Shown here: piece by piece, positions 2,275-26,953 of the stretch
How positions within the stretch are numbered: position 1 is the first letter of the stretch
Layout: each line of letters starts with the position of its first letter
Source of the DNA: a virus
Virus genome (UHGV): UHGV-0294963
DNA length: 64,000 nt
Direction: 5' to 3' (one strand)
Translations under genes and position numbers: made by a program
Notes under the pieces: generated by a model
What the model was told of the DNA's origin: nothing
Databases searched by the model: none
What the model saw: only the letters and a program-made list of their open reading frames with translations

Positions 2275-2384
2275 GTTGCTACACAACGCACGCTAATGAT
2301 TTGCGTGTGGTTCACACGAATCACATAAACTTATACATGATTTACTACCGTGTGGTATGCTTTAGCGTGCTACGTGATTTAATT
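2275..2384. repeat. family B intergenic element (inverted TTAGCGTGC sites plus CCGTGTGGTATGC)
   Basis: cgcacgctaatg ... ccgtgtggtatgctttagcgtgctacg. The same motifs recur at ~15.1, 40.9, 42.05, 45.0, 47.35 and 52.0 kb. Confidence 0.5.
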
Positions 2385-4586
2385 GAGCACTAAGAAGTGA
2401 CCTGCACTGTTCTCAGCTTTGAATGCCTGAATATCAGCTACAGGCTTCCAGTCGATGAACGTACCGTCGTTTGCTAGAAGCATTTGCATTAGAGTTTCCT
2501 TAGCGATGTCTTCAGAGTCTCCAGGAACGACAATCCCGTCAAAATTGTCTTCTGGGAGCATACACTCAGCGACAAAACCAGGGCCTTGTGCTTGAGTGTC
2601 TCTTAGGTCTTCATAACCGAGTCCATATGCAGCGAAGTCACCTTCCTCAAAAACTCGATTTGTGCCTGTATCTGCAGCTGCAGGTTCACCGACTATACCT
2701 ACGCCGCCGAGTGCATTGCTGTTAAAGCTGAGTGATGAGTTAAGACCAGCAGCATCTTCTGATTTCTTCATATGTTCCTGTCTTTTCTTAAATGCTGCTT
2801 TGAGCTTGTCTAGAGCAGATGCTCCTTTGTTTGCGTCACAGCTGGTATCTGAATTAGCATGCTTAGATGCGTCTAGATTGTCTTCGTCACCGTGAAGCAT
2901 ATCGTAAGAAGCCGCTGCCTGCTTGATATAGTTGACAGCATCGCTGCCCTTCATTCTCTTATCCAAGCTGCCTGATTCGGTACGGATAATGCTGTAATCC
3001 TTGAATAAGGTTACATAGACAGTTGCGTTTGCCAAGTCACCTGAGGCAATCATTTCATTATCATTGTATCCCGCAGGTGCTACGAAAGCACCGATATCGC
3101 CGACTTTGACTTCAACGCTGGTAGTATCAGGATTCTTCTCAATTGCACGAGTAAGAGCAGCTTGGAGCGACTCGTCGGTGAGCTCATCGGTAAGCACTTC
3201 TGTAGTGTTTTCGTCAAGTGAGGCATCAAGGTCCTCCCAGTTGACATCTTTGTACTTTCTTGCGATGTACTTCTGGATGTCAGGTTTAACCTTCATCGCT
3301 TCTTTTCTTCCGATGTACTTATTGAGAAGCAGCCAGGTTACGATAGACGCATCCAGCTTATATGCTTCTTGAGGAGTGATGAGCTTCTGCTCGACCATAG
3401 GCTGAAGAAGTTTCGCATTTTTTCTGTAAGCATCGATAGGCTTAATTGTTCCTGCCTTGACGCCTTCCAGAATTGCGGCAGGGTCATCAGGAATATTCTC
3501 TGCAACGGAGTACAATCCTTTCTTAATTAGCTTATCCTTTAGTGCTGGGTCAACCTTAACAGCATAGTCAGGTGAAATATAACCCTGTTGTACCAGCCAA
3601 AGAATCCTATCAGGAGCTCTACGTGCAACGATTTCTGGTGCAATCAAGCCCTTGGTGACAAGGTCTTTAGCAAGTGTCGGCTTAGCTTTGAGAACCTTTT
3701 CTGCATCGACATAACCCTTCGTGACCAAACGCATAACACCAGGTGTGCTCATACGGTCGAGGTCAGACTTTTTAAGTTCTGCGATGCCGTCTGCGAGGAA
3801 GTACTCATAGCAGCGAGCTGGAGGATTCTGCAGCATACTATCGACCATATCAGACAAAAGACCTGCAAGCCAGTAAGCTGTATGCTGGTCTCTCTTGTTC
3901 GCATTGTCACCGTTTGCTGTATATCCATACATACCCTGCTCAACATCGATGAATCTTCCCGACCTATGGTAGATTAGATGAGCCTCAGAGTTAGGATTGT
4001 AGTTAGGTTCGAATGACCAATCATCTACACCGCTCTCATCAGTCTCAGCACCCACCTCAACCGTGAGTGAAGACTTGGCTACCCACTGGGTAGTGCCGAG
4101 TTTTTGAGAAGTGTACATCAAGGTTGACAGAATTAGGTCATCACCTTTGTTCTCACGGAAGGCGGTATAACGGAATCCGGGAGGAAGGTCAACAGCTTCT
4201 TGTGCAGCTCTGAATACGTTCTTGACACGCACTGCTACACCAGGGTCAAGTGCAGAATTAAGCCCAGTGCTCTGACCTTTGAGTGAATTATAGAAAGCAT
4301 CGATGCGTCTGCAGCACTCAAGATTGGTATCAAGCCAATCACCGAGGTCTTCTGCACACATATCAGGGCTTTCGATGTCATACTGCGGAACATATGCAAA
4401 TCCTTCTTCGGTAGCTTCACTATTCTCTGTCGGAGTATAAATCTCGACAGCAGTACCGTCAGGAAGATTGATTGTAAAGCCTACCTTTGAGTCATCAATG
4501 ATAGTACCTTCTGTTCTGCAGCAGTTGAGTGTTCGGGCATTTGCAATGCCCATCGTTTTGCACATTTCTGAAATAAATACGTTCAT
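2379..4586 (-). CDS. large virion-associated protein (735 aa), last gene of late operon; function unknown (tail or internal protein)
   Basis: Long ORF with RBS AAAGGAGGT. It has internal ~20 aa repeats (LVTKGxIxPE-like) and one LNSS motif near the C-terminus. It lies downstream of the tube candidate. Confidence 0.55.
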   Translation of the reverse strand: MNVFISEMCKTMGIANARTLNCCRTEGTIIDDSKVGFTINLPDGTAVEIYTPTENSEATEEGFAYVPQYDIESPDMCAEDLGDWLDTNLECCRRIDAFYNSLKGQSTGLNSALDPGVAVRVKNVFRAAQEAVDLPPGFRYTAFRENKGDDLILSTLMYTSQKLGTTQWVAKSSLTVEVGAETDESGVDDWSFEPNYNPNSEAHLIYHRSGRFIDVEQGMYGYTANGDNANKRDQHTAYWLAGLLSDMVDSMLQNPPARCYEYFLADGIAELKKSDLDRMSTPGVMRLVTKGYVDAEKVLKAKPTLAKDLVTKGLIAPEIVARRAPDRILWLVQQGYISPDYAVKVDPALKDKLIKKGLYSVAENIPDDPAAILEGVKAGTIKPIDAYRKNAKLLQPMVEQKLITPQEAYKLDASIVTWLLLNKYIGRKEAMKVKPDIQKYIARKYKDVNWEDLDASLDENTTEVLTDELTDESLQAALTRAIEKNPDTTSVEVKVGDIGAFVAPAGYNDNEMIASGDLANATVYVTLFKDYSIIRTESGSLDKRMKGSDAVNYIKQAAASYDMLHGDEDNLDASKHANSDTSCDANKGASALDKLKAAFKKRQEHMKKSEDAAGLNSSLSFNSNALGGVGIVGEPAAADTGTNRVFEEGDFAAYGLGYEDLRDTQAQGPGFVAECMLPEDNFDGIVVPGDSEDIAKETLMQMLLANDGTFIDWKPVADIQAFKAENSAGHFLVLN

Positions 4587-4601
4587 GCTACTCTACCTCC
4601 T

Positions 4602-5150
4602 TTAAGACATAGGTCCCAGGTAAATTGCACGAGAAACTTCAAGTGTGCAGTTGAACTTGACAATGTCCGAAGACTTGTAGTCAGCATCGCCGAAACCTAG
4701 CGATGAAATCCAGACGCCTCTCCACTTCCAGATACGAGAGAAGTTAGGGTCTCCATCACCAGAATCACGAAGAACATAAGCGTCCTTCATATAGCGGCTT
4801 GGTCTTCCCACCTTTTCTGTAGCAGCGTCGAATACCTGCTGGTCAAGGTCAACCAAAGCCTGCTGGCTGTCCAATCCAACGTATCCCTTGATAGTCCAAG
4901 ATACGTTCTGGTATGTAGGCTTACCTGCAAACTTCAAGCTGTCATTGCCGTAGAAGTCTTCGATTACGCCGTAACCTTTCTTGAACTCACCCAGGGAGTC
5001 TGTAGATAGCGTCAAGATATCCGAAAATGAAGCAAGCTCAGAAGAGTTGACATTGTATAGTCTAATCTCGAACTTGTCTTTCAGATATGGCATATAGTCG
5101 TCCTGACCAATCATGTGGTCAGTGCCATAATACATTCTGTCCATCCACAT
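4602..5150 (-). CDS. putative tail tube protein
   Basis: 182 aa with a strong RBS. Size and position next to the sheath gene fit a tube protein. No diagnostic motif was found. Confidence 0.4.
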   Translation of the reverse strand: MWMDRMYYGTDHMIGQDDYMPYLKDKFEIRLYNVNSSELASFSDILTLSTDSLGEFKKGYGVIEDFYGNDSLKFAGKPTYQNVSWTIKGYVGLDSQQALVDLDQQVFDAATEKVGRPSRYMKDAYVLRDSGDGDPNFSRIWKWRGVWISSLGFGDADYKSSDIVKFNCTLEVSRAIYLGPMS

Positions 5151-5184
5151 AGACTCGTCCTCCTTTTTAATTGATTTTAACTGT

Positions 5185-5260
5185 TCTGCTTAAATGCACG
5201 AAGGTACAGTGTATAAATTTACAGCCTAACCGACGCAGCATTTAAGCAAAACCGCTGTGC
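5185..5260. repeat. family C inverted repeat (CTGCTTAAATGCA ... GCATTTAAGCAAAAC)
   Basis: ~12 bp arms flank a TGTATAAATTTACA core, between the HU and tube genes. Confidence 0.5.
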
Positions 5261-5536
5261 TTACTTGTTCACACGCTCTTTGAGCTTGTAGCTTACCTTG
5301 AGCGCCGGTGCCTTGCTAGCATTGATGTCGATAGGCTGCTTTGTCTGAGGATTGATGCCCTTACGAGCTGCTCTCTCACGGACTTCGAATGTACCGAAGG
5401 ACTGAATGGTAACACTGTCACCCTGCTCAAGTGCTTCTGTGATTACATCGAACACACCGTCGATTGCTTTGTATGCCTGCTCATTAGTGAAGCCTGCCTT
5501 TTCTTTGAGTTTGGAAACGAATTCCTGCTTATTCAT
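5261..5536 (-). CDS. HU/IHF-family histone-like DNA-binding protein
   Basis: 91 aa. GFGTFEVRERAARKGINPQT is the canonical HU arm motif. The N-terminal helices resemble bacterial HU. Confidence 0.85.
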   Translation of the reverse strand: MNKQEFVSKLKEKAGFTNEQAYKAIDGVFDVITEALEQGDSVTIQSFGTFEVRERAARKGINPQTKQPIDINASKAPALKVSYKLKERVNK

Positions 5537-5627: not shown

Positions 5628-8285
5628 TTAGTCGTATGTCTCCTGGAAACCTGTAGGAGGAAGCAGGAACAAGTCGACATCGACTGTGTCAATAACACCA
5701 GTAACAGCAAGCTCAACCCTACCAATAACGGTGTTAGCATTGATGCGGTCAAGGTTAATGATATCGGGGTTCATGATAATACGATAGCCCCATGGATTGT
5801 ACTCATTACCTGTAAGAGCACCGACAGCTCTCATTTCATCAAGCAGAGGACTGAGTCCTGCATAGAAGTGTGAATATGCGTCTTCATTGTTGTATCTAAA
5901 CAGAATCTGAAGTGCTGTGTCCCAGATACGCTGCTTAACTCTGTTGGTAAGGAATCTGGTAGACAGATTCTGAAGTGCGTTGTAGGAACCAAGCGGCTTA
6001 TCCCAGAGTGTGCTATTACCAAAGCAAGTGAATCCCTTACCAGGAACCTCCATCAATGGATTTAAGCACACACCTTCGTCATGGTCTTGAATGAGGTCAA
6101 GATAATGCCTCTTGATTTTATATTCAGGTGTATGAACGACACCAGTACCGAGCATGCCCGCAGGTACCATCCACCACTTATTCTGCCCACCAACTCCCTT
6201 AGCATTGATGATAAGAAGTAGGTGTGCGATTTCAGGTGCAATCCAGGAATTAGCACCTGAAAGTGCTAGTGTAGTCTTACACCAAGGACCTACGACTTCA
6301 CCAAATGTCGAGTAGGTAGGACCTACGGCCTGGGAGACAGAATCCTTATACTTAAGAGCACCTGTCTTGACTGCAGAAGACCCTGTGCCTGTCTGAATAC
6401 CTCTAGGCATGCCGAAAGGTGTGCCAATGAGTGCAGCTCCGCACTTAGAATTAGCGGCAACTTCAATCATCTTGGTTACAAGCGTTGATACCTCATACTC
6501 CATGTAGAACGGATTAGCAGATGTATCACCATTTGCTTCAAGGAAGGACTGCGGTACATATTGGTCATCTGCGATACCCTGAACAAGGGCATCCCAATCA
6601 TAGACGATAGGGTCTGTAAGTTCATCGACTGTCTTATAGAAACGGCTATACATTATCTGCTGATTATATAGACGAACTAGAGCGTCAGGTTCATCAGTTG
6701 CGTATTTGGTTGCAATTCGATTAATATAATCGTAGAACTGACTATCAGTCGGAAAACGTTCTGCGACGATTGCTTTAACATCGTCGACTGTAATCTCTTC
6801 ACCGTCAGGTAATGTAGTTGCGTAGTCGGTACCATATATGAGTGAGGTAACCTGAACTCCGGTCGGATACTCTGAAGGAGAAATATTAGCTCCAGAACTG
6901 TAGACAATGAATGAAGGAGAGTCTAGGTTACTGAACGTAGCTTCTGTGATTAAAGGTCGATTGTCAGTAGCTGCGTCCTCATCAAATGCTACAGAAACGA
7001 TTTCTAGAAGCTGGTCGGTAGGAACAATCTCATTCGGGTTATTGTTATAACCGTTGTTGTCGAACACCTCGACTGTACCGATTTTGAAACCATCACTATT
7101 TAGGCCGCACTTAATGCGAACCTTCAGGTTGTTGCCGAACGAACCAGGGAATTTGGCTTGGAATCGAATGAGCTGAGTAGTTGATGGGATACTGGCAGCA
7201 ACACCTTCCGCGTAGAGTATGTCATGATTGCCAGAAGGTCGGTCTGTCCATGCGGAACCTAGTCGAACAGTGAACAATCCCAAATCAGAGTCATCTGAAG
7301 TGCTAGAGTAGATGTTCGATATACTGTTGTCAGATACAGCCTTGAGGCTCAGAAGTGCAGGTATGCTTTCAAGTTGAATGTACGTGAAGTCAGGTGCAAG
7401 AACGCTGTCGACAGTAATTGTACCATTCATTGCAGCAACACTAGGAACGTAAGTCGAGGTCTCTGTAATTGTGATATTACGTCTTTCAAGTACCGTACCG
7501 TCGGATGCGAATACAGATACCTGAACTGTGCCAGAAACAGTAACCTTCTTACCACGCTCTGACTTGTTGCCGACGATGACCGTTGAGTTTGTTGGCTTAA
7601 TCTGAGTAGTAAGAACTTCAGGCTTGCCGAACGCAACAATCAATGGCTTTTTCGTGTCGATTGCAGTTGCAGACTTAGCAGAAATCTTGAACTGGTTAGG
7701 AATAGAACCATGCACCGTCTTGTATCTATTGGTAACCGGGTCATAGACAGCCGAGAATACCTTGTATCTCAGAGTAGAATCTGGGTCAGGCATACCCCAA
7801 TCCCACACGATTCTACCGCCGACAAGTGTGTCGCGAGGAATATAAAATCTATACGGGATATTCTTATATGAAGCTGCTGTAGGTGTAGTCACCATATCAG
7901 GATAAAGCATAAGCGTATCGGCTGCAGGAGTAGGCTCTGTACCTCCGATAGGAACCACATATAGACTGTTGTGGCTTTTCTCACCCAGACCATCGACTCT
8001 CTTGACAAGAATATCATAGCCAGAAGCGAGAAGTTTGAGTGCGTAGTCGTACGATTTCTCGCGAGCACCAAGATACTTGTTCGCACCTCTGAAGGTCGAT
8101 ACAAAGTCTGTAGTGCCCCGGAAGCCTGCACTGAAATGTACCCAGTCCGGGTTGGCGTCCTCGTCACCCTCTACGAAGGTAGGACCCCAGATTGCAGCAA
8201 TCGGGAAAGCAACCGTTGCGTAAGAATTATTCTTAGTCTGGAAGCTGTAAGTCTCCGAATGCTCATAGATGTTAATTCTTGGCAT
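5628..8285 (-). CDS. tail sheath protein
   Basis: The ORF table starts at a TTG at 8291; an ATG with AGGAGGAG RBS is at 8285. The N-terminus (AIWGPTF...DFVSTFRGANKYLGAREKSYDYALKLLASGYDILVKRVD) resembles the sheath N-domain, e.g. T4 gp18 FQWGPAF...YGNDLRVVRAVD. The C-terminal region (WWMVPAGMLGTG...NPL...VIGRVELAVTGV) resembles the sheath C-domain. Comparison is from memory only. Confidence 0.6.
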   Translation of the reverse strand: MPRINIYEHSETYSFQTKNNSYATVAFPIAAIWGPTFVEGDEDANPDWVHFSAGFRGTTDFVSTFRGANKYLGAREKSYDYALKLLASGYDILVKRVDGLGEKSHNSLYVVPIGGTEPTPAADTLMLYPDMVTTPTAASYKNIPYRFYIPRDTLVGGRIVWDWGMPDPDSTLRYKVFSAVYDPVTNRYKTVHGSIPNQFKISAKSATAIDTKKPLIVAFGKPEVLTTQIKPTNSTVIVGNKSERGKKVTVSGTVQVSVFASDGTVLERRNITITETSTYVPSVAAMNGTITVDSVLAPDFTYIQLESIPALLSLKAVSDNSISNIYSSTSDDSDLGLFTVRLGSAWTDRPSGNHDILYAEGVAASIPSTTQLIRFQAKFPGSFGNNLKVRIKCGLNSDGFKIGTVEVFDNNGYNNNPNEIVPTDQLLEIVSVAFDEDAATDNRPLITEATFSNLDSPSFIVYSSGANISPSEYPTGVQVTSLIYGTDYATTLPDGEEITVDDVKAIVAERFPTDSQFYDYINRIATKYATDEPDALVRLYNQQIMYSRFYKTVDELTDPIVYDWDALVQGIADDQYVPQSFLEANGDTSANPFYMEYEVSTLVTKMIEVAANSKCGAALIGTPFGMPRGIQTGTGSSAVKTGALKYKDSVSQAVGPTYSTFGEVVGPWCKTTLALSGANSWIAPEIAHLLLIINAKGVGGQNKWWMVPAGMLGTGVVHTPEYKIKRHYLDLIQDHDEGVCLNPLMEVPGKGFTCFGNSTLWDKPLGSYNALQNLSTRFLTNRVKQRIWDTALQILFRYNNEDAYSHFYAGLSPLLDEMRAVGALTGNEYNPWGYRIIMNPDIINLDRINANTVIGRVELAVTGVIDTVDVDLFLLPPTGFQETYD

Positions 8286-8889
8286 CTTCAATCTCCTCCT
8301 TTACGTTATTATATAACTCAGAATCTATGTACCAATCCAGATAACGTAGATTTTTTCTCCTGATGTCGATGATGTTAGCGCCTAACACACGAATCGGAAT
8401 TATCTGTTGATATAGGATTCCGGATACCGAGAATTGGTCAACTCCAGAACTGCTCTGAAAGTCACCATTTATTAAAATTTGACCGTGAATTGAGCGGTCA
8501 GAGCCATAAGGTAGATTTACCGTAAGCCTAGGTTTATTTAAGAACAAGAATGATATCTCGCTTGTCAGCTCGTCGATATCGTCTTGTGTATATGCAAGTA
8601 GAGTAACTGTATAATCCGCTTGTATCGGTACAGCCTGCTCATTTATTTTCTTGTGTTCTTGAACTCTGTCGACCCTGCCCTTACGAGCTATCGGCCAGGA
8701 CTGTAATTGCCTTTCAGGAGTCCAGTTAGTTCTGAAAAGCACAACAGCTGGTAGTTGAAGTCGATTTTCCTTGTGCATTGCGATAACATTCCAGTAATCT
8801 TTTACTGGAACTATCGCAACCTCACCCTTGAAATTTTCTTTGAAATACTCGTAGAGTGCGGTATCATATAGGTGTATCATTAGCTTCAC
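8272..8889 (-). CDS. hypothetical structural protein (neck/tail-terminator region)
   Basis: 205 aa ORF in the late operon between neck candidates and the sheath. Confidence 0.45.
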   Translation of the reverse strand: MKLMIHLYDTALYEYFKENFKGEVAIVPVKDYWNVIAMHKENRLQLPAVVLFRTNWTPERQLQSWPIARKGRVDRVQEHKKINEQAVPIQADYTVTLLAYTQDDIDELTSEISFLFLNKPRLTVNLPYGSDRSIHGQILINGDFQSSSGVDQFSVSGILYQQIIPIRVLGANIIDIRRKNLRYLDWYIDSELYNNVKEEIEDAKN

Positions 8890-9734: not shown

Positions 9735-10058
9735 TTACTCTACTTCAGGCTCGCCGCCTTCAGCAGCGCCGTCCTCAGCCAGAGTTTCGGTGTTGAGGTC
9801 GACGTCAACGGTATACTCATCACCGGACTCAGGCACGCAGTTTAGAACGATACCTGTGTCAGAAGGTGCGAGAGACACGCCGATTGTTGGGTCAGAAGAA
9901 AGCTCTGCAAGAACAGCCTGAATAACAACTTCCATGTCTTCAATGCTGTAATATACAGTACCCTCAACCTCCTTAGAAGAATTAAGATTAGCACCCTTAC
10001 CTTTCTTGGAACTATTCAGGTCGAGTCTAAGAATTCGTCTTTTAGCATTTCTAGCCAT
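9735..10058 (-). CDS. small virion protein with N-terminal basic leader and two LNSS motifs
   Basis: Start moved to the ATG at 10058, which has a strong RBS GGAGGTTAT. N-terminus is MARNAKRRILRLDLNSSKKGKGANLNSSKE. C-terminus is acidic. Confidence 0.5.
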   Translation of the reverse strand: MARNAKRRILRLDLNSSKKGKGANLNSSKEVEGTVYYSIEDMEVVIQAVLAELSSDPTIGVSLAPSDTGIVLNCVPESGDEYTVDVDLNTETLAEDGAAEGGEPEVE

Positions 10059-10083
10059 AATAGATAACCTCCTATCAGTTATA

Positions 10084-10788
10084 TTACAACACGGTTTGCG
10101 GTGTGTTGTTCTGTACCAAATATTCACGCTCTGCTCTAAGCTCTTCTAATCCCTCTGCGAGAAGTTGTTCTCCGTCGAGCTGAACAGGGCTATTCGGTAA
10201 CTTGACCTTGCGTCGTTTACTACCTACATATATCTTCATGTACGCTATAGCAAGTTTGCGTAGTTGACTTTGAGCGAAACTTGTCTTTAACTCTGAAGGG
10301 TCATCATATTCAGGAATGTATGTAATAGTAACATACACCGGTTTCGGAACGTTCGCTGCTACATATAGGTATTGATTCTGCTGGTCATAGTGATATTGTA
10401 AGTCTTCCGACACTGTGTTCTTAATCTGTTGAACAAGCATCAGTTGAACGTATCTGTCGAAATATGCGTGATAAGCACCTGAGTTCGGTACGGCTGCCAT
10501 TCCCGCAAGCGACGTAAAGACATTACCGACACTGGTGTTGTCTACATTCAAGCCTGCAGGAACTTCAGCACGCCGAATTGAAATGAAATCTTTAACTTTT
10601 AGGTTACCAACCCAAATTCGCTCTTTATAAGGTACGGTTAAATCGGCGTACTCATGAAGCTTCTCTTTCAGCTCTCTAAAAGCTTTCATGAGAATCTTCA
10701 TGTCGTCGCCGTCATTAACCTCTTGAGCAGTCCAAGGCACTTCAAGGTGCATATCATCCAGATATTCTTGAATTGTGGGGTTCAGCAT
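10084..10788 (-). CDS. hypothetical head-tail connector protein
   Basis: 234 aa with RBS AAGGAGGGG. Position is downstream of the MCP. Confidence 0.5.
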   Translation of the reverse strand: MLNPTIQEYLDDMHLEVPWTAQEVNDGDDMKILMKAFRELKEKLHEYADLTVPYKERIWVGNLKVKDFISIRRAEVPAGLNVDNTSVGNVFTSLAGMAAVPNSGAYHAYFDRYVQLMLVQQIKNTVSEDLQYHYDQQNQYLYVAANVPKPVYVTITYIPEYDDPSELKTSFAQSQLRKLAIAYMKIYVGSKRRKVKLPNSPVQLDGEQLLAEGLEELRAEREYLVQNNTPQTVL

Positions 10789-10812
10789 TTAACCACCCCT
10801 CCTTATCTGGAA

Positions 10813-11328
10813 TTAGCCTTCTCCGCCGTCTCCGCCGTCAGCGGCTGCAGAAGTAACTGTAAAGCCGAAGTCTTTGAGGGCTGCACCTGCCTGAACGTAG
10901 AAGGAAGCTTCTGCGTAGGTATCACACGCGAATGTGTTCGTAGTGCCGTCGAGCTCTGCAGTCATTTTGAAGGTCTGCCATGCTCTGTAGATAGAAATCT
11001 GAGGAATGAGGTATGCCTCAAGAATATTCATGAGGTCCATTGCCACAGACTGCGGCCATCTCTTCTGGGCAGAAGTGAGTAAGCTGAGGTTTGCGATTGC
11101 AGTAACAGCACCGTTTGAGTTGGTGAAGAGATTCTCCTTGTTGTACTCAGGTGCAGTTGCGCCGTCAGCTGCATAGATGTAAGGCTTAGAAGCACCAGGC
11201 CACTTACCAGGCATTGTGCTGGAAGAAAGACCAGGGATTGGTGCAACAGTCTTCACGTTTGGCTCCTGATTCTGCATATTGTAGATATCATTGGCAGCCG
11301 TATAGGTGATTGTAACATTGTAACTCAT
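10813..11328 (-). CDS. hypothetical capsid-associated protein (decoration candidate)
   Basis: 171 aa with a Gly/Asp-rich C-terminus, immediately downstream of the MCP. Confidence 0.45.
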   Translation of the reverse strand: MSYNVTITYTAANDIYNMQNQEPNVKTVAPIPGLSSSTMPGKWPGASKPYIYAADGATAPEYNKENLFTNSNGAVTAIANLSLLTSAQKRWPQSVAMDLMNILEAYLIPQISIYRAWQTFKMTAELDGTTNTFACDTYAEASFYVQAGAALKDFGFTVTSAAADGGDGGEG

Positions 11329-11349
11329 AGCGTTAATCCTCCTTTAGAA

Positions 11350-12720
11350 TTAGTAAACCAGGTTGGTAACAACGCCACGGATGAATGCCTTCGGGTTCAC
11401 CATCTTCAGTGCGTTAGATGTTGCGAAGCCCTGCTGACCTGTGAATGTAGCATCCATAAGAGCAGCTGTAGCAGTAACCGGCATATATGTACCGAATACA
11501 TAAGAAGGCTCAACATCGTTAGCTGAGACGTGACCGAGGACGTACTGGTCGTGAGGAATACCACCACGGAAGCAGTAAACCTTCTTATCGCCGAGTTCGC
11601 CGGCATAGTAAGAACCAGTTGTCTTCTGAGTGTTAGCGGGTTTGAACATAGACATACCCTGGATAACAGTCATGACGCTGGAACCAACGAGCATGAAGTT
11701 AGGACGAATACGACCTGTTGCGTCGTAGATTCTCTGAGAACCTGCGTTGATAGCTCTGATGAAGGAGTTATCATGTGCAAGGTCGCCTGCCTGTCCCTGG
11801 CCGATAGGAGGAGTAGCGCTCCAAACAACAGGTTGACCTGCTGCTGCCTTCTGCCACATATCGTGAGCAACCTTGGTGTTGAGCTCATTTACGATAGTAG
11901 ACGTTGCCTGCTCCTCGAGCATCTTAGGACCATCGAGACCGTACTGCTGTTCCATATCGTAAGCAGCTGCCATGGACCAACGTGCTGCGAGAGTGTTGTC
12001 CTCTGCAACAAGGTCGAGCCATTCAAGAGTGCTGTAGATAGGGGGTGTGTTCGCAGAAGCGGAAATGTTATCAACTCTGTAAGAAGCAAGTGTAGTAGCA
12101 GCTGCTGTTACACCTGTGATAACACCGGTTGCATAGTCGATTGTACCTGCATCAACAACAGTCGAGCCATTGAGGTACTGAATCTTACCCTCGCCGTCGT
12201 CGAAGTAGCTGTGACCAGCCTGCTCAACGATTCTAACCGTTGTAGGAACAACAGGAGCGCGGAGGAAGAGGTCAGTGAGTGGCTCGTTATTGACATCACT
12301 ACCAGAGTAGTTCTCAGTGCCTCTTGCGAGCTCGAAGGGGCTTGCAGAAACCTGACCTGCCTTTACAACACCCTTATCTTCACCGAAGTGGAAAAGAGTG
12401 TAGGGAATTGCAGTATGTCTGCTAGACATAGGCTGCATGGTGCAGAACTCAGGAATGAGCCAGTCGACAAGTGTTGCACGAAGCACGTTCATGTAGGTTG
12501 TCTTCTGGAGCACATCACCGGGCTGAGTAGCGCTCGGGATAATAGAAGTAGGAAGGAGACTCGAGTTGAGCGCTCTCTTCTGCAGGGCGTATGCGTTATT
12601 GAGAATCTTCTGAGCTTTAGAAAGCCCAATAGCGTCATACCCACGTAGTCCTTTTGCAGTACGGCTGGAATTCAGGCTCTGAATTCCTGCCTTGCCTGCG
12701 TTTGTGTACGGCTTAAGCAT
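11350..12720 (-). CDS. major capsid protein (candidate) with N-terminal propeptide
   Basis: 456 aa with strong RBS, placed after the portal and scaffold/protease candidates. Two LNSS motifs lie at residues ~16 and ~51, as expected for proteolytic N-terminal processing. Confidence 0.55.
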   Translation of the reverse strand: MLKPYTNAGKAGIQSLNSSRTAKGLRGYDAIGLSKAQKILNNAYALQKRALNSSLLPTSIIPSATQPGDVLQKTTYMNVLRATLVDWLIPEFCTMQPMSSRHTAIPYTLFHFGEDKGVVKAGQVSASPFELARGTENYSGSDVNNEPLTDLFLRAPVVPTTVRIVEQAGHSYFDDGEGKIQYLNGSTVVDAGTIDYATGVITGVTAAATTLASYRVDNISASANTPPIYSTLEWLDLVAEDNTLAARWSMAAAYDMEQQYGLDGPKMLEEQATSTIVNELNTKVAHDMWQKAAAGQPVVWSATPPIGQGQAGDLAHDNSFIRAINAGSQRIYDATGRIRPNFMLVGSSVMTVIQGMSMFKPANTQKTTGSYYAGELGDKKVYCFRGGIPHDQYVLGHVSANDVEPSYVFGTYMPVTATAALMDATFTGQQGFATSNALKMVNPKAFIRGVVTNLVY

Positions 12721-12734: not shown

Positions 12735-13337
12735 TTAGCTAAAGTTTTTGAAGTGCGAATTGTATAACATCTCACACAAAGCATTCTTACGCAACTCTGC
12801 CAGTTGACGGCTGGTATTCGTTAACCTGAGAGTGCCTTGTGGGAGGTTTCGCCTTGAGGCTGCGAGCTGAACTGGAACAGCATATTTGAAAGCTGGTAGC
12901 GCTACAAAGTCAAACCCAAAGAAGTCAATTGGACCGGTTGTTCTACCAGGTACGGTACCTGTATCGGTACATCCATCAGCACGAATGCTGACACCAGGCT
13001 TAATACCGTGCATATACAAGTCTTTGATATATCTGCCTTCTTCGGTTGAGTCCAGAAGCTCAATTTTGCCTTTCAGCTTGTTCCCTTCTCTGTAACAGTC
13101 GATTAGGAAACCAGCTTCAGTCTTGCGGAACCCCGGTGTGTTATCCGTAGGGTGCTCGATGTATGCAGGATAGACCCTGCGTGCGAGACAATCCTTGAAG
13201 GTTTCATTATTCAAGAGCCAATCGATTGTTGCTCCCGAAAAAGTCAAACCATCCTGATTGGGAATGTCAATGTCGAGAAAGTCACCACCTACGACAAACC
13301 TTCCGGTGCTTCTGTCTTGGGTCATTTCTGTAACCAT
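12735..13337 (-). CDS. putative scaffold protein or prohead protease
   Basis: 200 aa located between portal and MCP. No catalytic motif could be verified. Confidence 0.35.
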   Translation of the reverse strand: MVTEMTQDRSTGRFVVGGDFLDIDIPNQDGLTFSGATIDWLLNNETFKDCLARRVYPAYIEHPTDNTPGFRKTEAGFLIDCYREGNKLKGKIELLDSTEEGRYIKDLYMHGIKPGVSIRADGCTDTGTVPGRTTGPIDFFGFDFVALPAFKYAVPVQLAASRRNLPQGTLRLTNTSRQLAELRKNALCEMLYNSHFKNFS

Positions 13338-15278: not shown

Positions 15279-17231
15279 TCAGTGCATTTGTGTTAATCGG
15301 TCGAAAAATGACCAATCGTCTGGATTTCTTTCGAACGCAGTTCTGTCGTAGGCTTGCAGCCCACCGAATAGGCCGTTCTTGAACGACGAAGGCATTTTAT
15401 CTTCTTTTTCGTGTGAATACATCGTAAAATCATGTAAAACCGGAGTATAAGGTAACAGACTCAAATCCCATACAGCGCCTGCCAAGCTATCCGAAATATC
15501 TTTTGAACCATTAGCAGGATGGTCTAGCTTACCTGTATGGGTATCGTATTGAAGATAAATCAATTCATTTTCTAATCTAGCGTAATGAATTAGACTAATT
15601 CTACGCTCCATCATCGATTCACGCAGAGTCTTATAACCTTCTGGTGTACGGTCGAGTGAGCGTATAGCCGTGGTGAATCCTTTATCTCGCAATATCTGAT
15701 GAGACTCAGCTGTCTGGTAGGTATCGGTACTGATTATAGCAATATTAAATCCCACACTTCGTAGCCAGTACAGGAACCTTCGGTTCTTTGCCATGCTAAT
15801 TTCGGTACCAGGTGGAGCCTTGATACCGACAGAGAATACCTGAGCATAAACTCGTTTTTCTATTGTTCCATCATCGGTATCTGCCAGAACATTATCTACA
15901 TAGCAAGCACCCGATATACCAGTAATATCATTCTTCAATGACGTATCAAGATGTATAGCCATCGGTCTTGATTTATATTCCTTAGGTACCTTTTCTAGGT
16001 CGAAAAATTCTTGATACTCCATATGGTCGTTGCATCCTATCTCAAGTACCTCCGCTGAGAACGGATTTGGTCTATCTGTGTAGCACGAGCTGATAATCTT
16101 ATAACTGAAGTAGCTGGTTGTACCCGGTAGTGCTTTACCAGCAAGGTCCTGTAATGCAGTTATGATGTTGAACCGAAAATCTGACTCTAGTTCAACCGGG
16201 ACATCCAGTATCTCATATCCAAGCTGTCGTATGGCATCAAGGTCTTCTCCTTCTTCAATCACTCTAGGAGTTAGCTGTTTCGCACCGTAAGCAACCTTAA
16301 ACATTTTACCAGAATATGTATCAGAGGGTTTTACAACCCACAGCGGCTCGTCGACAATGAACAGTTTATCAGCGTCGTTCTCTTTTCGGCGTTTATCTAG
16401 ATACACCTCTAAGAAGTCGTCTTCTGCTTTCTTAGAAGAAACCAGGAACATCTTACCCAAGAGTTTTCCGTTCCTGATGAAACGTGATTTAATTCTGGCT
16501 TTAACCGAAGAGTAAGTCTGCATAATCTTAGACTTCTCCATGGTTGTATTCGAACCCGGTGCGAAGTTAACCTCATCAAGGAAACCACAGAATATTTGCT
16601 GACCTAAACCGTGACTTGCTTTAGAACCAGCTTTAATAGCAATATGTTTTCCTGGTACATAATAAGGGTTAGATGCGGAACCTGCAACGGTACCATGAGA
16701 CAGAAACCAAGGAGATTCCATAAGACACGCATGAAGTCGTCCGTAACCAACGCTTTGTGCCAGTGCAACCGTAGCGTTGAAGAAGAATATAGCAATTTCG
16801 TCGGTATCTGCGAATCCGAAATATCTTTGAGGGAATTTCAGACATAATAGTCGATATGTTAGGTAAGCAATGGCATAGACTGCAATCGCGGTCTTACCAA
16901 TACCGATAGCCCCTGTAAACGCAATTTCTTCGTATTCGGTATCTCCACCGGCAAATATCTTGCGTAGTTGTTCTCTCCAGAAAGGGTATATCTGATTACC
17001 TAGATTAGTGGCTTTACCTAGATATTCAGGGTCTTCTAGAAACGTGTCTATATCTACCGGAATCTCTTCATAGTCTTCTAGCCAGACTTTTTCATAGGTT
17101 TCACTCTCACCTGTTTCACTGAGCTCTCTGAGTATCTGCTGCATAGTCTCTTGCTCAGAAGGAGACAATGAATTATAGATACTTTGAAATCGTTCAGGAG
17201 CTAGCATAGTGAGATTTAGCGTACTACTCAT
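15279..17231 (-). CDS. terL: terminase large subunit
   Basis: 650 aa. Walker A is FTGAIGIGKT and Walker B-like is FLDEVNF. The C-terminal half has acidic nuclease-type motifs. First gene of the structural block. Confidence 0.8.
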   Translation of the reverse strand: MSSTLNLTMLAPERFQSIYNSLSPSEQETMQQILRELSETGESETYEKVWLEDYEEIPVDIDTFLEDPEYLGKATNLGNQIYPFWREQLRKIFAGGDTEYEEIAFTGAIGIGKTAIAVYAIAYLTYRLLCLKFPQRYFGFADTDEIAIFFFNATVALAQSVGYGRLHACLMESPWFLSHGTVAGSASNPYYVPGKHIAIKAGSKASHGLGQQIFCGFLDEVNFAPGSNTTMEKSKIMQTYSSVKARIKSRFIRNGKLLGKMFLVSSKKAEDDFLEVYLDKRRKENDADKLFIVDEPLWVVKPSDTYSGKMFKVAYGAKQLTPRVIEEGEDLDAIRQLGYEILDVPVELESDFRFNIITALQDLAGKALPGTTSYFSYKIISSCYTDRPNPFSAEVLEIGCNDHMEYQEFFDLEKVPKEYKSRPMAIHLDTSLKNDITGISGACYVDNVLADTDDGTIEKRVYAQVFSVGIKAPPGTEISMAKNRRFLYWLRSVGFNIAIISTDTYQTAESHQILRDKGFTTAIRSLDRTPEGYKTLRESMMERRISLIHYARLENELIYLQYDTHTGKLDHPANGSKDISDSLAGAVWDLSLLPYTPVLHDFTMYSHEKEDKMPSSFKNGLFGGLQAYDRTAFERNPDDWSFFDRLTQMH

Positions 17232-17234: not shown

Positions 17235-17438
17235 CTACTCTCCCTTCTTACAGCGAAACGTCTTGATTTCAGAAGTTTCGCGGTCGATGCGTACTGTAGG
17301 CATCTTCCTGCCGCGAGTGATAGTAAGGAGCAAGGAGGACTCGTTTTCAGGGTCCTCCTTAACATCCACGGTGAGCACATCCTGATAGAGAGAACGAGCA
17401 GCTTTTTCAGCTTCTTTTCGTTCTTTCTTTGAAATCAT
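17235..17438 (-). CDS. hypothetical small basic protein
   Basis: 67 aa with an RBS. Confidence 0.4.
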   Translation of the reverse strand: MISKKERKEAEKAARSLYQDVLTVDVKEDPENESSLLLTITRGRKMPTVRIDRETSEIKTFRCKKGE

Positions 17439-17722
17439 TTTGTTTCCACCTCAGGGTTCAGATAAGCATTGATATCCGCACCGATTGCGTACAAGTCAGC
17501 AACCCAGTCAAGAAGCTGCTTGGTATTGTCTTGGGACTCGCCTGATGTTTCGCTAAGCGGTGTTTCTAGTCTTGCTTCAACAGACGCAGCGAGCTGCTGA
17601 GCCTGGTCAGTAAGATTTTGGGAGATTGTGAGCAAGAGCTCACGGTCGACTCCCACCGAGCTGTTCAATTTAGTAGAAGCTGTGGGTTTCGACGTCTGTG
17701 TCTTGGGATTGTAGCGAACCAT
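17435..17722 (-). CDS. small virion/internal protein candidate with N-terminal leader ending in LNSS
   Basis: Start moved to ATG 17722 with RBS AGGAGGTTAAG. N-terminus is MVRYNPKTQTSKPTASTKLNSS. Confidence 0.5.
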   Translation of the reverse strand: MVRYNPKTQTSKPTASTKLNSSVGVDRELLLTISQNLTDQAQQLAASVEARLETPLSETSGESQDNTKQLLDWVADLYAIGADINAYLNPEVETK

Positions 17723-18767: not shown

Positions 18768-19297
18768 AGTTTTGCCAACTCCTTTGCAGCATCACGAATG
18801 TTCTGACGCTCTTTAGATGTAAGTTCTGTTTGCTGAGCGTCTTCAATCGTGTCGAATATGATGGCGTCTTGAACATCAATCGGTATATCGATATTCTTAG
18901 TCGCCTGCTGTAGAGACATTAGCAGCTGCGTGTACATCGGAATGTACTGAGCGTCATGTTCTACATCAGACCGCATAAGAGCATCGATAGCATATTCCAG
19001 CTTGTTGGTGAGTTTGTCAGTAATCCGGTTAAAGCGTAGCAGACGTAGTTCCTTATTCCGCTCTTTAAGCTGCTGGATTAGCTTCAGCCTTGTACCAGGC
19101 TGAATAGCTCTAATTGCTTCAGTGTCACTGATAAGCAAATGATATATAAGCTGATTGTTTCTTTCAACCCAAGCCTGTAGTCCTTGATAGGATTCATCTG
19201 ACTTAGGTAACTCAATCGGTTGACCGGTTCCATAGTTAAAGACGTCAGCATAGTTCTTTACGGTTGCTTCGTATTTCGGATTATTCATCGACACCAC
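18716..19297 (-). CDS. hypothetical protein (GTG start)
   Basis: 193 aa. Confidence 0.45.
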   Translation of the reverse strand: MVSMNNPKYEATVKNYADVFNYGTGQPIELPKSDESYQGLQAWVERNNQLIYHLLISDTEAIRAIQPGTRLKLIQQLKERNKELRLLRFNRITDKLTNKLEYAIDALMRSDVEHDAQYIPMYTQLLMSLQQATKNIDIPIDVQDAIIFDTIEDAQQTELTSKERQNIRDAAKELAKLCTSTSTDSQKTGAQTT

Positions 19298-19763
19298 CTA
19301 CATTACCTGGATCGCACTCTGGTTCTGTATAAGAATCGGTTACGATGTCGAAACCGACACGCTTACCAGAGATTTCTGGGTTTGTGAATTCGACGTGACC
19401 GAGGCTTTTTAGTAGCTCTTCGAGTCTTTCTGCTGTCTCTTTCTTGACTGACTCTTCGAATTCGAACACAACAGACTGGTCTTTGTTGATGAATACACGA
19501 GTCATCTTGGGGATATCGCCGTGAATTCTAATGTTGTAGTACAGTGTGCGGAGCATGGTAGCGTCGAAATACGACGGATATAAAGCCTGGTGAACAGGCA
19601 TAGACTCATGAAAGTTCGGGCACATACTCGAATTCAGCGAAGGTGCTTTCCCATCGAGTTGTCTAATAGTGCTTTGTGCTTTCTCGCTAAATAGCTGAAT
19701 AAAAGCACCAGGGTCTACCTTGTTCTGTCTTGCACAATCAAGTCTCATAATTTTACCGAACAT
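19281..19763 (-). CDS. virion protein candidate with 45 aa N-terminal leader ending in LNSS
   Basis: 160 aa. The leader reads ...RQLDGKAPSLNSSMCP. Confidence 0.5.
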   Translation of the reverse strand: MFGKIMRLDCARQNKVDPGAFIQLFSEKAQSTIRQLDGKAPSLNSSMCPNFHESMPVHQALYPSYFDATMLRTLYYNIRIHGDIPKMTRVFINKDQSVVFEFEESVKKETAERLEELLKSLGHVEFTNPEISGKRVGFDIVTDSYTEPECDPGNVGGVDE

Positions 19764-22769: not shown

Positions 22770-22831
22770 ACCTTCAATCGAGTTTGAAATATTTGCTAAG
22801 AATTTTCCGCTTAGCCGGAGTTACCACGTGA

Positions 22832-24579: not shown

Positions 24580-24598
24580 ACAGCTCCACCTGCCTTTC

Positions 24599-26953
24599 TT
24601 ATTGTTCCGGGAATCTGAATTTGATATCCTTGTCGATTGCCGCTTTGCATTCATCAATTGTCTTGTAGATGTGTGGTGAGAACTTACCATAAGGACTTAC
24701 TGCAATATACCCTCCTGACTTCTCACCGCCGGTGATGAGATAATCCTTGTATCTCATAGCACCATCGTCGACGATACTATCATCCAGGTCTACCTCAGAA
24801 CTGTTCAGAGAATCATTATCAACTACAACAGCGAAGCCGTCTTCGAGAGGCTTTATACCAGAAAGCTGGATGCCGAACTCTGCAGCAATTGGCTCGATTT
24901 CGGTTGGCTCCATTCCACGAATGATAATCTTATAGCCTGAGCCTTCACCTTCCGTAGTAGGCACGGTGCTTACCTGCTTTGCTCCTTCTTTGATTTTCTC
25001 GACGAACAATTTTAATGCAGGATTGTCGTGTACCGAGCTATTCAGTTCAGACTTTCTAGAAGAATCCATCTTGACTTCGTCGTTCATGTCGCAGACGGTA
25101 GTCCAGATGCAACCAGGATACTCGACTTCAAATTGTTCTTGAATTGCTTCGTATAAATCCATGCCCTCAAGATTGTCACTGACTGTAATTACTGCCGGCT
25201 TCTCAATTTCATTGCCGTTCTCGTCCTCGTAGTACACCTGAAATTGTTTCTTAGGCTTGTTCACGTCAGCAGTACTCGGTTCGATTGAGCTATCTACACT
25301 CTGCTTTGTTGGAGTAACGTCACCTTCATGAGCGTCGAAAGAATCCCAGCCGTTCTGTACCAGTGTGGTCACGACGTGCTCTATGATATCATCTGCTTCT
25401 GATGCTTGCTCGTCAGAGCCGTCAAAGCCAATGCGAATCGTAGTCGAATCTGGTCGAGCAACCTGCTGAATAGTGATATCCAGATTTTTATCTCTCAATT
25501 CGTTCTCGATAATATTCTTAAGGTCGGACACTCTTTCCTGAGTGCGAGCGAAGTCCTGGGGAACCGTTACCTCACTGATAGCACAATTAAGAGAGCTGTC
25601 GATATCATCGAAATCCTCGGAGTCGAGAGGGTCATCATCTCCGAGGATAACGCGCATAATTTCGTCAACAATTAGCAAGTCTTCAGCGGCCTGTATAATG
25701 TCTACAAGAGCTTCATGCTCATCGACGCTTGCCAATAGCTCCTTTAGTGAACCTTCTACGTCGCCGAACATCTTTTCCTTGATTTGGTCATCGTAGTTAA
25801 GGTCTTCGATAGCCTCTACAATACCAACCAACATTTCATGTTCATCGACCTCTGCCGCAGCTTCCTTCAGCGAATTGGCGGATTCACAGTTCAGTTCATT
25901 CTTTTTTTTAGATGAGTCGAGGCTTTCATCACCTTCGCATACGCAGGGTTCCTGGCCGCACTCGGGGCAGACAGCATCAGTCGGAAGAGCTGCTTGAGCA
26001 GCATCAGCAATTACGACAAAACCTTCAGGAATTTCGTCGTCCTCTGTTTCCTTGACGAAGAGTGCGAGCTCATTGGTATCAGGATTCTGAACAATCTTGA
26101 TATCGTCGAGTGCAACCTCATTGCCAGACTCAGTGGTAATCATTGCAACTTCCTCAGAACCTTCACCGACAACATCTCCGCCATCAGTGTTTCCTTCAGG
26201 TTCTTCTGAAGAGTTCAGCGTAGTACTTCCTGTGGTCTTGTTAGTCCCTTTAGCAGAGTCGAGCTCCTCGGTTGCAGATTCCCAGTCGACAGATTTGGTT
26301 ACATCTGATGATTCTACTGCCTGGCGTGCCTTCTCTGCGTCTGCATCCGGGCAGTCGATTTTTACCTTAACGTCGGTATTGTTAACCTTCTCGAAGTCAA
26401 CCTTAGCACCAGGAACAGCTTTCTCGATTCTGCTTCTGAGCAGACGCTCTGTAGTATCATTATCAAGGTCGGCAAAATCATTATAGATAGTCACTGTGCC
26501 TAAAACCTTGGTGGAACCAACTTCGCAGTTAAGACTAGAATCAGCATTTGTCTTGTCGCAGGAGCCATTCATGTCATCCTTTGTGTACCACTTACCGTCT
26601 GTACGATACCAGAGCTGTTCTTTACCGTCCTTGACAGCCCAGAAATCACCGTCCAAACCTGCCTCTTCAGGAGATGCAAGACGAACAACCTGAGCGCCAG
26701 TCTCATTCTCGAAAGCTTCGAGATATTTCTTTGCTTCTTCTTCGCTAAGCCAATGACAGAGCTCCTGAAGTACAGATTCTCTTGAGCAGTTGAGCTTACG
26801 AATAGTTGCTAGACTTACGCTTGCGATAGCAGAAGTTCTACTCCTCGAACTATTTAGCTCTGTGTTGCGAGGGCGACGCTGCTTTGTCGTAGACTGAGTC
26901 TGAGTCTGAGTCTGAGCATTTGTCTTTGCAACCGGTTTAGTTACATTTACCAT
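24599..26953 (-). CDS. large highly acidic protein with eight LN[SC]x motifs at ~100 aa spacing (candidate protease-processed internal head/ejected polyprotein)
   Basis: 784 aa with RBS AAAGGAGTAATC. Composition is very D/E-rich. LNSS/LNCS/LNCE/LNCA motifs lie at residues ~31, 52, 143, 245, 345, 455, 640 and 725. There is an internal tandem repeat (AAAEVDEHEMLVGIVEAIEDL / LASVDEHEALVDIIQAAEDL). Confidence 0.6.
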   Translation of the reverse strand: MVNVTKPVAKTNAQTQTQTQSTTKQRRPRNTELNSSRSRTSAIASVSLATIRKLNCSRESVLQELCHWLSEEEAKKYLEAFENETGAQVVRLASPEEAGLDGDFWAVKDGKEQLWYRTDGKWYTKDDMNGSCDKTNADSSLNCEVGSTKVLGTVTIYNDFADLDNDTTERLLRSRIEKAVPGAKVDFEKVNNTDVKVKIDCPDADAEKARQAVESSDVTKSVDWESATEELDSAKGTNKTTGSTTLNSSEEPEGNTDGGDVVGEGSEEVAMITTESGNEVALDDIKIVQNPDTNELALFVKETEDDEIPEGFVVIADAAQAALPTDAVCPECGQEPCVCEGDESLDSSKKKNELNCESANSLKEAAAEVDEHEMLVGIVEAIEDLNYDDQIKEKMFGDVEGSLKELLASVDEHEALVDIIQAAEDLLIVDEIMRVILGDDDPLDSEDFDDIDSSLNCAISEVTVPQDFARTQERVSDLKNIIENELRDKNLDITIQQVARPDSTTIRIGFDGSDEQASEADDIIEHVVTTLVQNGWDSFDAHEGDVTPTKQSVDSSIEPSTADVNKPKKQFQVYYEDENGNEIEKPAVITVSDNLEGMDLYEAIQEQFEVEYPGCIWTTVCDMNDEVKMDSSRKSELNSSVHDNPALKLFVEKIKEGAKQVSTVPTTEGEGSGYKIIIRGMEPTEIEPIAAEFGIQLSGIKPLEDGFAVVVDNDSLNSSEVDLDDSIVDDGAMRYKDYLITGGEKSGGYIAVSPYGKFSPHIYKTIDECKAAIDKDIKFRFPEQ

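Follow-up and report, generated by a model that had tools for sequence, protein, structure and literature searches.

An LN[S/C/A]S motif in virion proteins of an uncultivated phage as the probable recognition site of a T4 gp21-like prohead protease

In phage T4 the prohead protease gp21 cuts at L/I-x-E, and the system comprises capsid-targeting leaders as well as core proteins that are cut several times (PMC9026906). Giant phages of the SPN3US type possess a gp21-related protease, and all of their sites end in Glu (PMC10052503). Here we describe a comparable arrangement with a different motif in the virus genome UHGV-0294963, of which a stretch of 64,000 nt was analysed (the window). The myovirus structural block of the window spans 2379-26953. 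The tetrapeptide LNSS and close variants recur in six proteins encoded there, namely the major capsid protein (MCP), an acidic protein of 784 amino acids (aa), three small proteins of 107, 95 and 160 aa and an acidic protein of 735 aa. In our reading, the phage's own gp21-like protease recognises L-N-[S/C/A]-[S, less often A/E/D/K/T] and would thereby cut leaders, the MCP propeptide and the 784-aa protein. We assign this reading a probability of roughly 0.75. The comparative data support an enzyme of known type with a new class of specificity, combined with an unusual substrate architecture, the scheme itself being that of T4 and the giant phages.

Motif counts were derived from a six-frame translation combined with a greedy gene set, late genes being the minus-strand genes between 2379 and 26953. 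A sequence-only reading of the window had claimed that LNSS-type words are far more frequent in the late genes than composition would allow, and the recount bears this out. LNSS occurs 11 times with 0.31 expected from composition (Poisson P = 5e-14) and is the most enriched word in an unbiased scan of all tetrapeptides. Within-protein residue shuffles (500 rounds) yield on average 0.14 and at most 2 occurrences in the late genes. LNSS is absent from the 11,041 codons that make up the rest of the window. For the shorter word LN[SC], 20 occurrences in the late genes compare with 5 elsewhere in the window (Fisher P = 1.2e-4). Tripeptides of the form x-x-E are not found among the top enriched words. 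In total, 18 LN[SC]x sites are spread over the six proteins (LNSS eleven times, LNCE twice, LNCS, LNCA, LNCC, LNCV and LNSA once each). The previously given "at least 17" thus holds for LN[SC]x overall, whereas the four forms named at that time (LNSS, LNCS, LNCE and LNCA) add up to 15. The positions given for the individual sites, two in the MCP, eight in the 784-aa protein and those in the three small proteins and the 735-aa protein, are all correct. LNCC and LNSA of the 735-aa protein (residues 20 and 109) had gone unmentioned and are new here. Codon usage differs between sites as had been stated, with CTG, CTT, CTC, CTA or TTG for Leu, AGY as well as TCN for Ser and AAC or AAT for Asn. The varied codons indicate selection at the protein level and rule out a DNA repeat. 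Compositional bias is ruled out by the ratio of 11 to 0.31, by the shuffles and by the lack of LNSS outside the late block.

The MCP carries two LNSS sites in its predicted N-terminal propeptide. Approximately 50 homologues, 70-98% identical overall, are hypervariable in sequence and length within their first 15-45 residues. Each of them contains 2-3 LN[SA]S sites, and all share ...QKRALN[S/A]S followed by LLPTSIIPSATQPGD. T4 gp23 loses a propeptide of 65 residues (PMC9026906). The second MCP site of the window aligns a few residues from the respective gp23 cut, L63-T64-E65|A66, and Ser54 is the predicted N-terminus of the mature MCP. More distant MCP homologues show LLE|N and MNE|ATQPGD.

The five other carriers have a common format. 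Their predicted leaders are short, basic and poor in acidic residues, and all end in LN[SC]. The number of residues preceding the first predicted cut is 16 in the 107-aa, 21 in the 95-aa, 45 in the 160-aa, 22 in the 735-aa and 35 in the 784-aa protein. For the three small proteins a leader closed by the motif, reminiscent of capsid targeting, had been proposed before; both the positions and the leader charge are confirmed. Orthologues of the 95-aa protein have diverged leaders and carry LNSS, LNCA or LNSA at the same place. Likewise, LNSS, LNAS or LNCS is found at the same place in orthologues of the 160-aa protein. Orthologues of the 107-aa protein retain one or two LNSS, the first of which reads LDSS in the relatives L001 and L005. 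All three site positions of the 735-aa protein are conserved in the orthologues of L001, L005, L008 and L009, which measure 630-637 aa. A Pfam search of the motif carriers matched the MCP and no other, and neither a Pfam nor a PHROG family was found for the 735-aa protein. At residues ~290-450 the latter contains about seven tandem repeats of ~22 residues (KGYVDAEKVLKAKP..., KGLIAPEIVARRAP..., QGYISPDYAVKVDP...). In the relative L023 three small paralogues of 95, 85 and 97 aa lie side by side (18841..19693). Their Arg-rich leaders RRNRLSRMRG, NRNRLSRLRS and MKRNRRWRG are followed by LNSS, LNAS or LNSN, and such tandem paralogues of leader-tagged proteins look comparable to the loci of the internal proteins (IPs) of T4.

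Dozens of metagenomic relatives retain the motif at orthologous positions within diverged flanks. This supports purifying selection on the motif alone, which behaves as a selected processing site. Ser, Ala and Cys replace each other at the third position of orthologous sites, for example KRALNSS versus KRALNAS, each followed by LLPTSIIP. In relatives with a protease of 54-58% identity, LNAS is as frequent as LNSS. A sister clade is represented by L026 (logan:ERR3345681_2141), with an MCP of 36% identity and a protease domain of 30% identity (E 1.4e-10). LN[SA]S is not enriched in L026. I-x-S-[S/G/A], on the other hand, is observed 29 times versus 7.6 +/- 2.7 expected, and Asn occupies the middle position in only 3 of these 29 matches. 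The L026 sites are located at leader ends (MTYNR-IKS|A, MKYQR-IRS|S and MEYIR-ILS|S), at the end of the MCP propeptide (QQQR-IRS|GLMTQATQPADV) and repeatedly in a scaffold-like tail fused to the protease. BLAST of the motif carriers against the L026 locus gave the protease as the sole match. The cultured phages GXN1 and HSE3 are enriched in LLES, LTES and ESA and exhibit a candidate MTE|S in the MCP, consistent with L-x-E|S. The genes concerned in L026 are located at 5766..6977, 7142..8806 and 10001..11437, and a 403-aa acidic protein with five sites is encoded between its portal and protease genes.

A site logo was built from 255 non-redundant sites of the 784-aa protein family. Information is restricted to P3 to P1', the positions from three residues before to one residue after the presumed cut. 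P1 is Ser in 151, Cys in 100 and Ala in 4 sites. P1' is Ser in 62%, followed by E, A, D, T and K, and P4-P6 are polar. When the clades are lined up, P3 is Leu or Ile, P2 free or Asn, P1 Glu or Ser/Ala/Cys and P1' Ser, Gly or Ala. As the register of L026 and of GXN1/HSE3 matches P3 and P1 of T4, the scissile bond most likely follows the third residue, L-N-[S/A/C]|S. Of the specificity "LN-S" suggested by the sequence-only reading, the motif stands, and the bond is most likely moved behind the Ser. The 784-aa protein also has four copies of a related word, [L/I/V/M]-D-S-S (residues 345, 451, 553 and 629). All four lie in linkers, and most precede an LN[SC] site by 4-9 residues. Considering also the LDSS of L001 and L005 mentioned above, it may represent a secondary site with Asp at P2.

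The candidate enzyme is the 200-aa product encoded between portal and MCP. It matches phrog_207 ("head maturation protease") with E 2.2e-8. An AlphaFold model based on 28 homologues reaches a predicted local distance difference test (pLDDT) value of 77. Foldseek against the PDB ranks chains A, B and C of 5JBL (T4 gp21) on the first three places (E 7.5e-6 to 2.5e-5, target-normalised TM 0.62-0.66). The assemblins of herpes simplex virus (HSV) 2, Epstein-Barr virus, Kaposi's sarcoma-associated herpesvirus, pseudorabies virus (PrV) and human cytomegalovirus (HCMV) follow with E 0.02-0.4. In alignments by hhalign and MAFFT, EH62P is opposite NH85P of T4, GVS117IR opposite GVS140SR and D143 opposite D168. 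H62, S117 and D143 are invariant in the 28 homologues, His62 and Ser117 being the putative catalytic residues. Residues 175-195 form the C-terminal helix of the model. Taken together, the predicted fold supports a T4 gp21-like prohead serine protease. This open reading frame (ORF) had been put forward before as a possible protease. The PHROG match, gp21 as top fold match and the aligned His62 and Ser117 strengthen the proposal, and the profile comparison with protease families envisaged for it yields PHROG 207 and no Pfam model. The tripeptide around the putative catalytic His is E-H-P in Ser-type clades versus N/D-H-P in Glu-type enzymes, a sample too small to name a specificity determinant.

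The 784-aa protein is the most elaborate carrier. Cutting at its eight sites would release products of 35, 21, 87, 105, 108, 101, 182, 79 and 66 aa. The isoelectric point (pI) of the entire protein is 4.24; the two N-terminal pieces have a pI of ~11.7 and the later pieces of 4.05-4.7. The AlphaFold model (48 homologues; mean pLDDT 64.5, predicted TM score 0.23) consists of about eight compact domains of 60-100 residues, mostly alpha/beta, between segments of low confidence. The low-pLDDT linkers comprise residues 1-55, 129-145, 226-267, 320-358, 438-454, 539-566, 624-641 and 722-745. Seven of the eight sites fall inside these linkers, which make up 31% of the residues, and the site at residue 716 is located at a linker edge. 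Linker 539-566 is the only one without a site; it reads VDSS here and LNSD in homologues. These findings agree with the earlier suggestion that the protein is built for being cut into acidic pieces, with about eight predicted domains, sites in linkers predicted as disordered and acidic modules.

The family of the 784-aa protein comprises 71 homologues of 443-1094 aa, each with 4-12 sites and ~20% Asp plus Glu. The leader is conserved as RRPRNxELNSS. Together with module 4 (residues 249-356, CPECGQxPCVCEG) it is the only part present in essentially all homologues. Modularity of the family is indicated by specific deletion variants. P0056 is 97% identical (100% in modules 2, 3, 7 and 8) and has lost ~205 residues, comprising module 5 and half of module 6, whereby the deletion ends fall in linkers. 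P0058 is 91% identical over the aligned region and is devoid of module 3. Homology breakpoints are ~1.7-fold enriched near sites. Single-linkage clustering of the segments collapsed into one cluster and is uninformative. The modules have no match in Pfam, PHROG, PDB or BFVD. Foldseek of the model against PDB and BFVD returned generic folds resembling ferredoxin, ACT or RNA recognition motif domains with E >= 0.02, plus one spurious match over the whole chain. None of these points to a function of the modules, such as the DNA mimicry, anti-defence activity or inner-body-like structure considered in the sequence-only reading.

Table 1. Features of the structural block and positions of LN[SC]x sites. 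Coordinates refer to the window; those of sites denote the encoding 12 nt.
Feature	Coordinates	Strand	Remarks
735-aa acidic protein	2379..4586	-	LNCC at residue 20 (DNA 4518..4529) ends a leader of ~20 residues
735-aa protein, LNSA	4251..4262	-	Residue 109
735-aa protein, LNSS	2733..2744	-	Residue 615; 118 residues after predicted cut
Tail tube	4602..5150	-	PHROG/Pfam searches
Tail sheath	5628..8291	-	PHROG/Pfam searches
107-aa acidic protein	9735..10058	-	Basic leader; LNSS at 10008..10019 and 9975..9986 (residues 14 and 25)
107-aa protein, internal LNCV	9834..9845	-	Residue 72; conserved; may not be a site
MCP, gp23 family	11350..12720	-	456 aa; Pfam Gp23 E 3.5e-23
MCP site 1, LNSS	12664..12675	-	Residues 16-19
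MCP site 2, LNSS	12559..12570	-	Residues 51-54
Prohead (head-maturation) protease	12735..13337	-	200 aa; phrog_207 and gp21-like fold
Portal protein, gp20-like	13425..15011	-	Pfam Portal_T4 E 1.6e-27
Adaptor, gp13/Ad2-like			Within the structural block
Large terminase	15279..17231	-	650 aa; phrog_2
95-aa acidic protein	17435..17722	-	18-residue basic leader, then LNS; LNSS at 17657..17668 (residue 19)
160-aa protein	19281..19763	-	42-residue leader, then LNS; LNSS at 19626..19637 (residue 43)
784-aa acidic protein	24599..26953	-	Eight LN[SC]x sites; basic leader and about eight small domains
784-aa protein, sites (residues)			33, 54, 141, 246, 354, 455, 637, 716; LNSS four times, LNCS, LNCE twice, LNCA
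784-aa protein, sites (first base of 12 nt)	26846, 26783, 26522, 26207, 25883, 25580, 25034, 24797	-	

Based on these data we propose the following scheme. Proteins of the head interior would bear short basic N-terminal leaders ending in a site, in the style of T4 capsid targeting. The protease would cut after the third residue of the motif, with Leu at P3, Asn at P2, a small residue at P1 and mostly Ser at P1'. After assembly of the prohead it would strip the leaders and remove the 53-residue propeptide of the MCP via two cuts. The 784-aa protein would be cut at the linkers between its domains, giving seven acidic domains of 7-20 kDa and two basic peptides.

The weakest step concerns what becomes of the variable modules of the 784-aa protein. 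We tentatively regard them as cargo, at somewhat less than even odds; a scaffold role is rather unlikely, and what remains falls to other or mixed fates. The turnover of modules among near-identical relatives favours cargo over a size-determining core. A role in assembly is possible for the universal leader and for module 4. More speculative, and rather doubtful at present, is that the family represents a capsid-delivered polyprotein, cut into seven acidic mini-proteins which are injected with the DNA as DNA mimics or anti-defence factors in an arms race, alongside a protease with P1 shifted from Glu to Ser/Ala/Cys. A rival account retains the cleavage code as proposed and takes the 784-aa protein for a scaffold or core protein, an analogue of T4 gp22, gp67 and gp68 that is chopped and expelled with none of it delivered. 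At this locus the protease, of only 200 aa, is not separated from the MCP by a scaffold gene, while proteases fused to a scaffold-like extension are found in HSE3 (gp062, 559 aa), GXN1 (558 aa) and L026 (554 aa). In its low pI of 4.24 and its many predicted cuts the 784-aa protein is similar to T4 gp22 (PMC9026906), in which we count 16 [LI]-x-E within 269 aa, and the presence of leader and module 4 in essentially all homologues would suit a scaffold as well. The predicted structure, however, consists of small globular alpha/beta domains and not of a long coiled coil, and the length of the family varies from 443 to 1094 aa. Moreover, the loss of modules in P0056 and P0058 is hard to reconcile with a size-determining role, and at 8-20 kDa the folded pieces would be rather big to leave via pores of the shell. 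Overall, expulsion as a scaffold seems possible at well below even odds.

Other explanations concern the motif itself. It might be cut by a host protease or a second phage protease encoded outside the window, or serve as docking site of a partner without any cleavage. The link between enzyme and motif is not derivable directly from the sequence, the window covers 64 kb of a genome of ~135-167 kb, and the 735-aa carrier is encoded among tail genes. Against this, the motif shifts as the adjacent protease diverges: LN[S/C]S turns to more LNAS at 54-58% identity, to I-x-S-[SGA] at 30% and to L-x-E-S in the Glu-type phages. In addition, the propeptide of a gp23-type MCP and the ends of leaders are the sites used by gp21-type proteases (PMC9026906). 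We thus consider another enzyme or partner improbable. Even less credit is given to a sequon of the N-x-S/T type, another kind of modification tag or a linker element multiplied by duplication. An N-x-S is indeed part of LNSS, LNCS and LNAS, an acidic residue (D or E) stands two positions ahead of the Asn at several sites, and the linkers of the 784-aa protein share the pattern DSS...ELN[SC]. Nevertheless, in the 255 sites the +2 position from Asn is Ser in 62% and Thr in only 4%, the rest being E, A, D, K, N and G. The invariant Leu is required by no sequon, and the L026 motif mostly lacks the middle Asn. The sites, finally, occur with differing codons in six unrelated proteins and, in the MCP, at the counterpart of the known T4 cut. 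An N-glycosylation sequon in particular is contradicted by the 4% of Thr and 38% of non-Ser residues at +2, the invariant Leu and the motif of L026.

Several observations weigh against the processing scheme proposed here. A small P1 residue is not reported in the papers on T4 and giant phages consulted here, where all sites end in Glu (PMC9026906, PMC10052503). The 200-aa protease has no Pfam family at E <= 0.01, the T4 gp21 family included. Neither the protease sequence nor its profile retrieved a meaningful match among PDB sequences, and hhalign to T4 gp21 (E 0.0012) reports a probability of only 19%; the assignment thus builds on PHROG, fold and motif alignment. The protease itself carries no canonical LN[S/C/A] site. 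Some LN[SC] need not be cut, as LNCV lies inside the domain of the 107-aa protein and LNSR inside the MCP fold of relatives. The 735-aa gene is the last one of the late operon and adjoins the tail tube and sheath genes, hardly the position expected for a head protein. To pack acidic cargo next to DNA would be unusual, and acidity and fragmentation of the 784-aa protein fit an expelled scaffold. Moreover, the phage is uncultivated, its MCP is at most 30% identical to that of any isolate, and all support is in silico.

Nearly all genes of the window are carried by the minus strand. The gene order portal, protease, MCP is the same in all relatives examined, no scaffold gene is present between the protease and MCP genes at this locus, and the 784-aa gene is located ~11 kb upstream of the protease gene. 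When the head module was compared by megablast with 50,697 phage records, no match was obtained. By tblastn with the MCP, the closest isolates (~30% identity) are the Bacillus phages vB_BceM-HSE3 and SP-15, Listeria phage LIS04 and Streptococcus phage vB_SagM-GXN1. Many relatives are present in IMG/VR and other metagenome assemblies, with contigs up to ~167 kb. A scan of GTDB genomes with the MCP found no relative and hence gives no clue to the host.

Further observations relate to neighbouring genes. The tail sheath and tube genes flank one for a full-length DNA-binding protein of the HU/IHF type (5261..5536, minus strand; Pfam Bac_DNA_binding E 5.6e-31), an odd position for a nucleoid protein; it has no LN[SC] site. 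The large terminase is interrupted by an intein (Pfam Intein_splicing, PT-HINT) in L024 (6127..8457) and L026 (29..2983), leading to proteins of 776 and 984 aa compared to 650 aa in the window. Directly upstream of the late block, ORFs on the minus strand at 27056..27514, 27688..28128, 28754..30478 and 30918..31679 code for a GIY-YIG-like protein (recognised by eye, with no Pfam match), a dUTPase, an NAD-dependent DNA ligase and a radical-SAM protein. In the early region, the N-terminal 70 residues of the product of 33568..34455 (minus strand) match Pfam Tad8, an inhibitor of type II Thoeris (E 2.9e-12), and this is a possible anti-defence gene. The left end of the window is a short plus-strand block that opens with a fragment of a family-A DNA polymerase (9..632), the strand switch being located at ~2200-2379. 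A single tRNA-Gln (anticodon TTG) is found at 60232..60307 (minus strand) within the mechanical ORF 59790..60311.

If the processing scheme holds, candidates for packaging could be recognised by a basic leader with LN[S/A/C]S at its end. The head-internal proteome of an abundant uncultivated clade could then be listed from sequence. A small P1 followed by Ser here and I-x-S|[S/G/A] in the sister clade, as opposed to Glu in T4 and SPN3US, would imply that the specificity pocket of the gp21 fold is evolvable. The clade with small P1 would also bring the phage proteases closer to those of herpesviruses, which have the same fold and cleave at (V/L/I)-x-A|S. The bead-on-a-string format of the 784-aa protein, with a site per linker and module turnover between near-identical phages, is unusual. 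In case the modules are ejected, they constitute a pool of candidate proteins for host takeover or anti-defence; in case they are expelled, they would form an unusual globular scaffold. Should the reading as polyprotein delivery be true, it would represent a new packaging format for phage counter-defence. Leader and site could moreover act as a packaging tag for engineering, as the capsid-targeting sequence of T4 has.

Compared with T4, the locus shares a gp20-like portal, a gp21-like protease and a gp23-like MCP in the same order, a three-residue code with hydrophobic P3 and the loss of the MCP propeptide at an equivalent place (53 residues predicted here, 65 in T4). Like IPI-III and Alt, internal proteins would have short N-terminal leaders ending in a site, and one acidic protein would be cut many times. 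In contrast to T4 (MEROPS S77), P1 is Ser, Cys or Ala and not Glu, P2 is fixed as Asn, and no gp22-like scaffold gene lies beside the protease. IPs of T4 are basic, whereas here basic leaders would be followed by acidic mature internal proteins. In place of a helical scaffold, the protein with many predicted cuts consists of globular mini-domains in a row, and the protease does not reach the Pfam profile of the gp21 family. A gp22-type core protein is acidic, largely helical, cleaved many times and encoded next to protease and MCP. The 784-aa protein shares the acidity and has many sites; it is predicted as mostly alpha/beta mini-domains, its gene lies ~11 kb from that of the protease, and its length differs between close relatives.

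The giant phages phiKZ, 201phi2-1 and SPN3US (gp175/gp245) likewise combine a gp21-related protease with a short motif on many head proteins. They have genomes of ~240 kb. No classical scaffold gene is known in these phages, and their MCP is not known to be detectable by sequence as gp23-like. As in the window, the motif is present more than once in propeptides, in this case those of abundant internal or ejection proteins (PMC10052503). Their motif (A/S/G)-x-E, however, ends in Glu and has a small P3, while P3 is Leu here. Processing in the giant phages mostly trims N-terminal propeptides, whereas eight domains would be separated here.

Herpesvirus assemblins (MEROPS S21) belong to the same fold class. 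The assemblin site of HCMV and HSV is VNA|S. In PrV, the sites are YLQA|T and VQA|S (PMC4498786). L-N-[S/A/C]|S, with the bond as inferred above and as LNA|S in L016, L018, L023 and L024, would have the same layout as (V/L/I)-x-A|S. Assemblin is fused to its scaffold, is activated by dimerisation and uses Ser-His-His; the protease of the window is unfused with its 200 aa, and Asp143 is the residue invariant besides its His and Ser. Assemblin acts on few substrates, namely itself and the scaffold, compared to at least six predicted here, and the fold match to assemblins is weak in relation to gp21 (Foldseek E 0.02-0.4). Given the lack of a scaffold fusion, Asp instead of His as third residue and the weaker fold match, the protease is not an assemblin, and the likeness in specificity may have arisen by convergence.

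Polyvalent proteins are predicted to be packaged, processed by peptidases and delivered with the DNA (PMC5512222). The 784-aa protein resembles them in being long and multi-domain, encoded near virion genes and mosaic between relatives (PMC5512222). Polyvalent proteins contain two to fifteen recognisable domains with effector or counter-defence roles, such as ADP-ribosyltransferases (ART), MuF, peptidases and nucleases, and often a peptidase of their own, whereas the modules described here, about eight per protein, match no entry of Pfam, PHROG, PDB or BFVD. The latter are furthermore small (66-108 aa, one of 182 aa), uniformly acidic and predicted to be cut in trans by the head protease.

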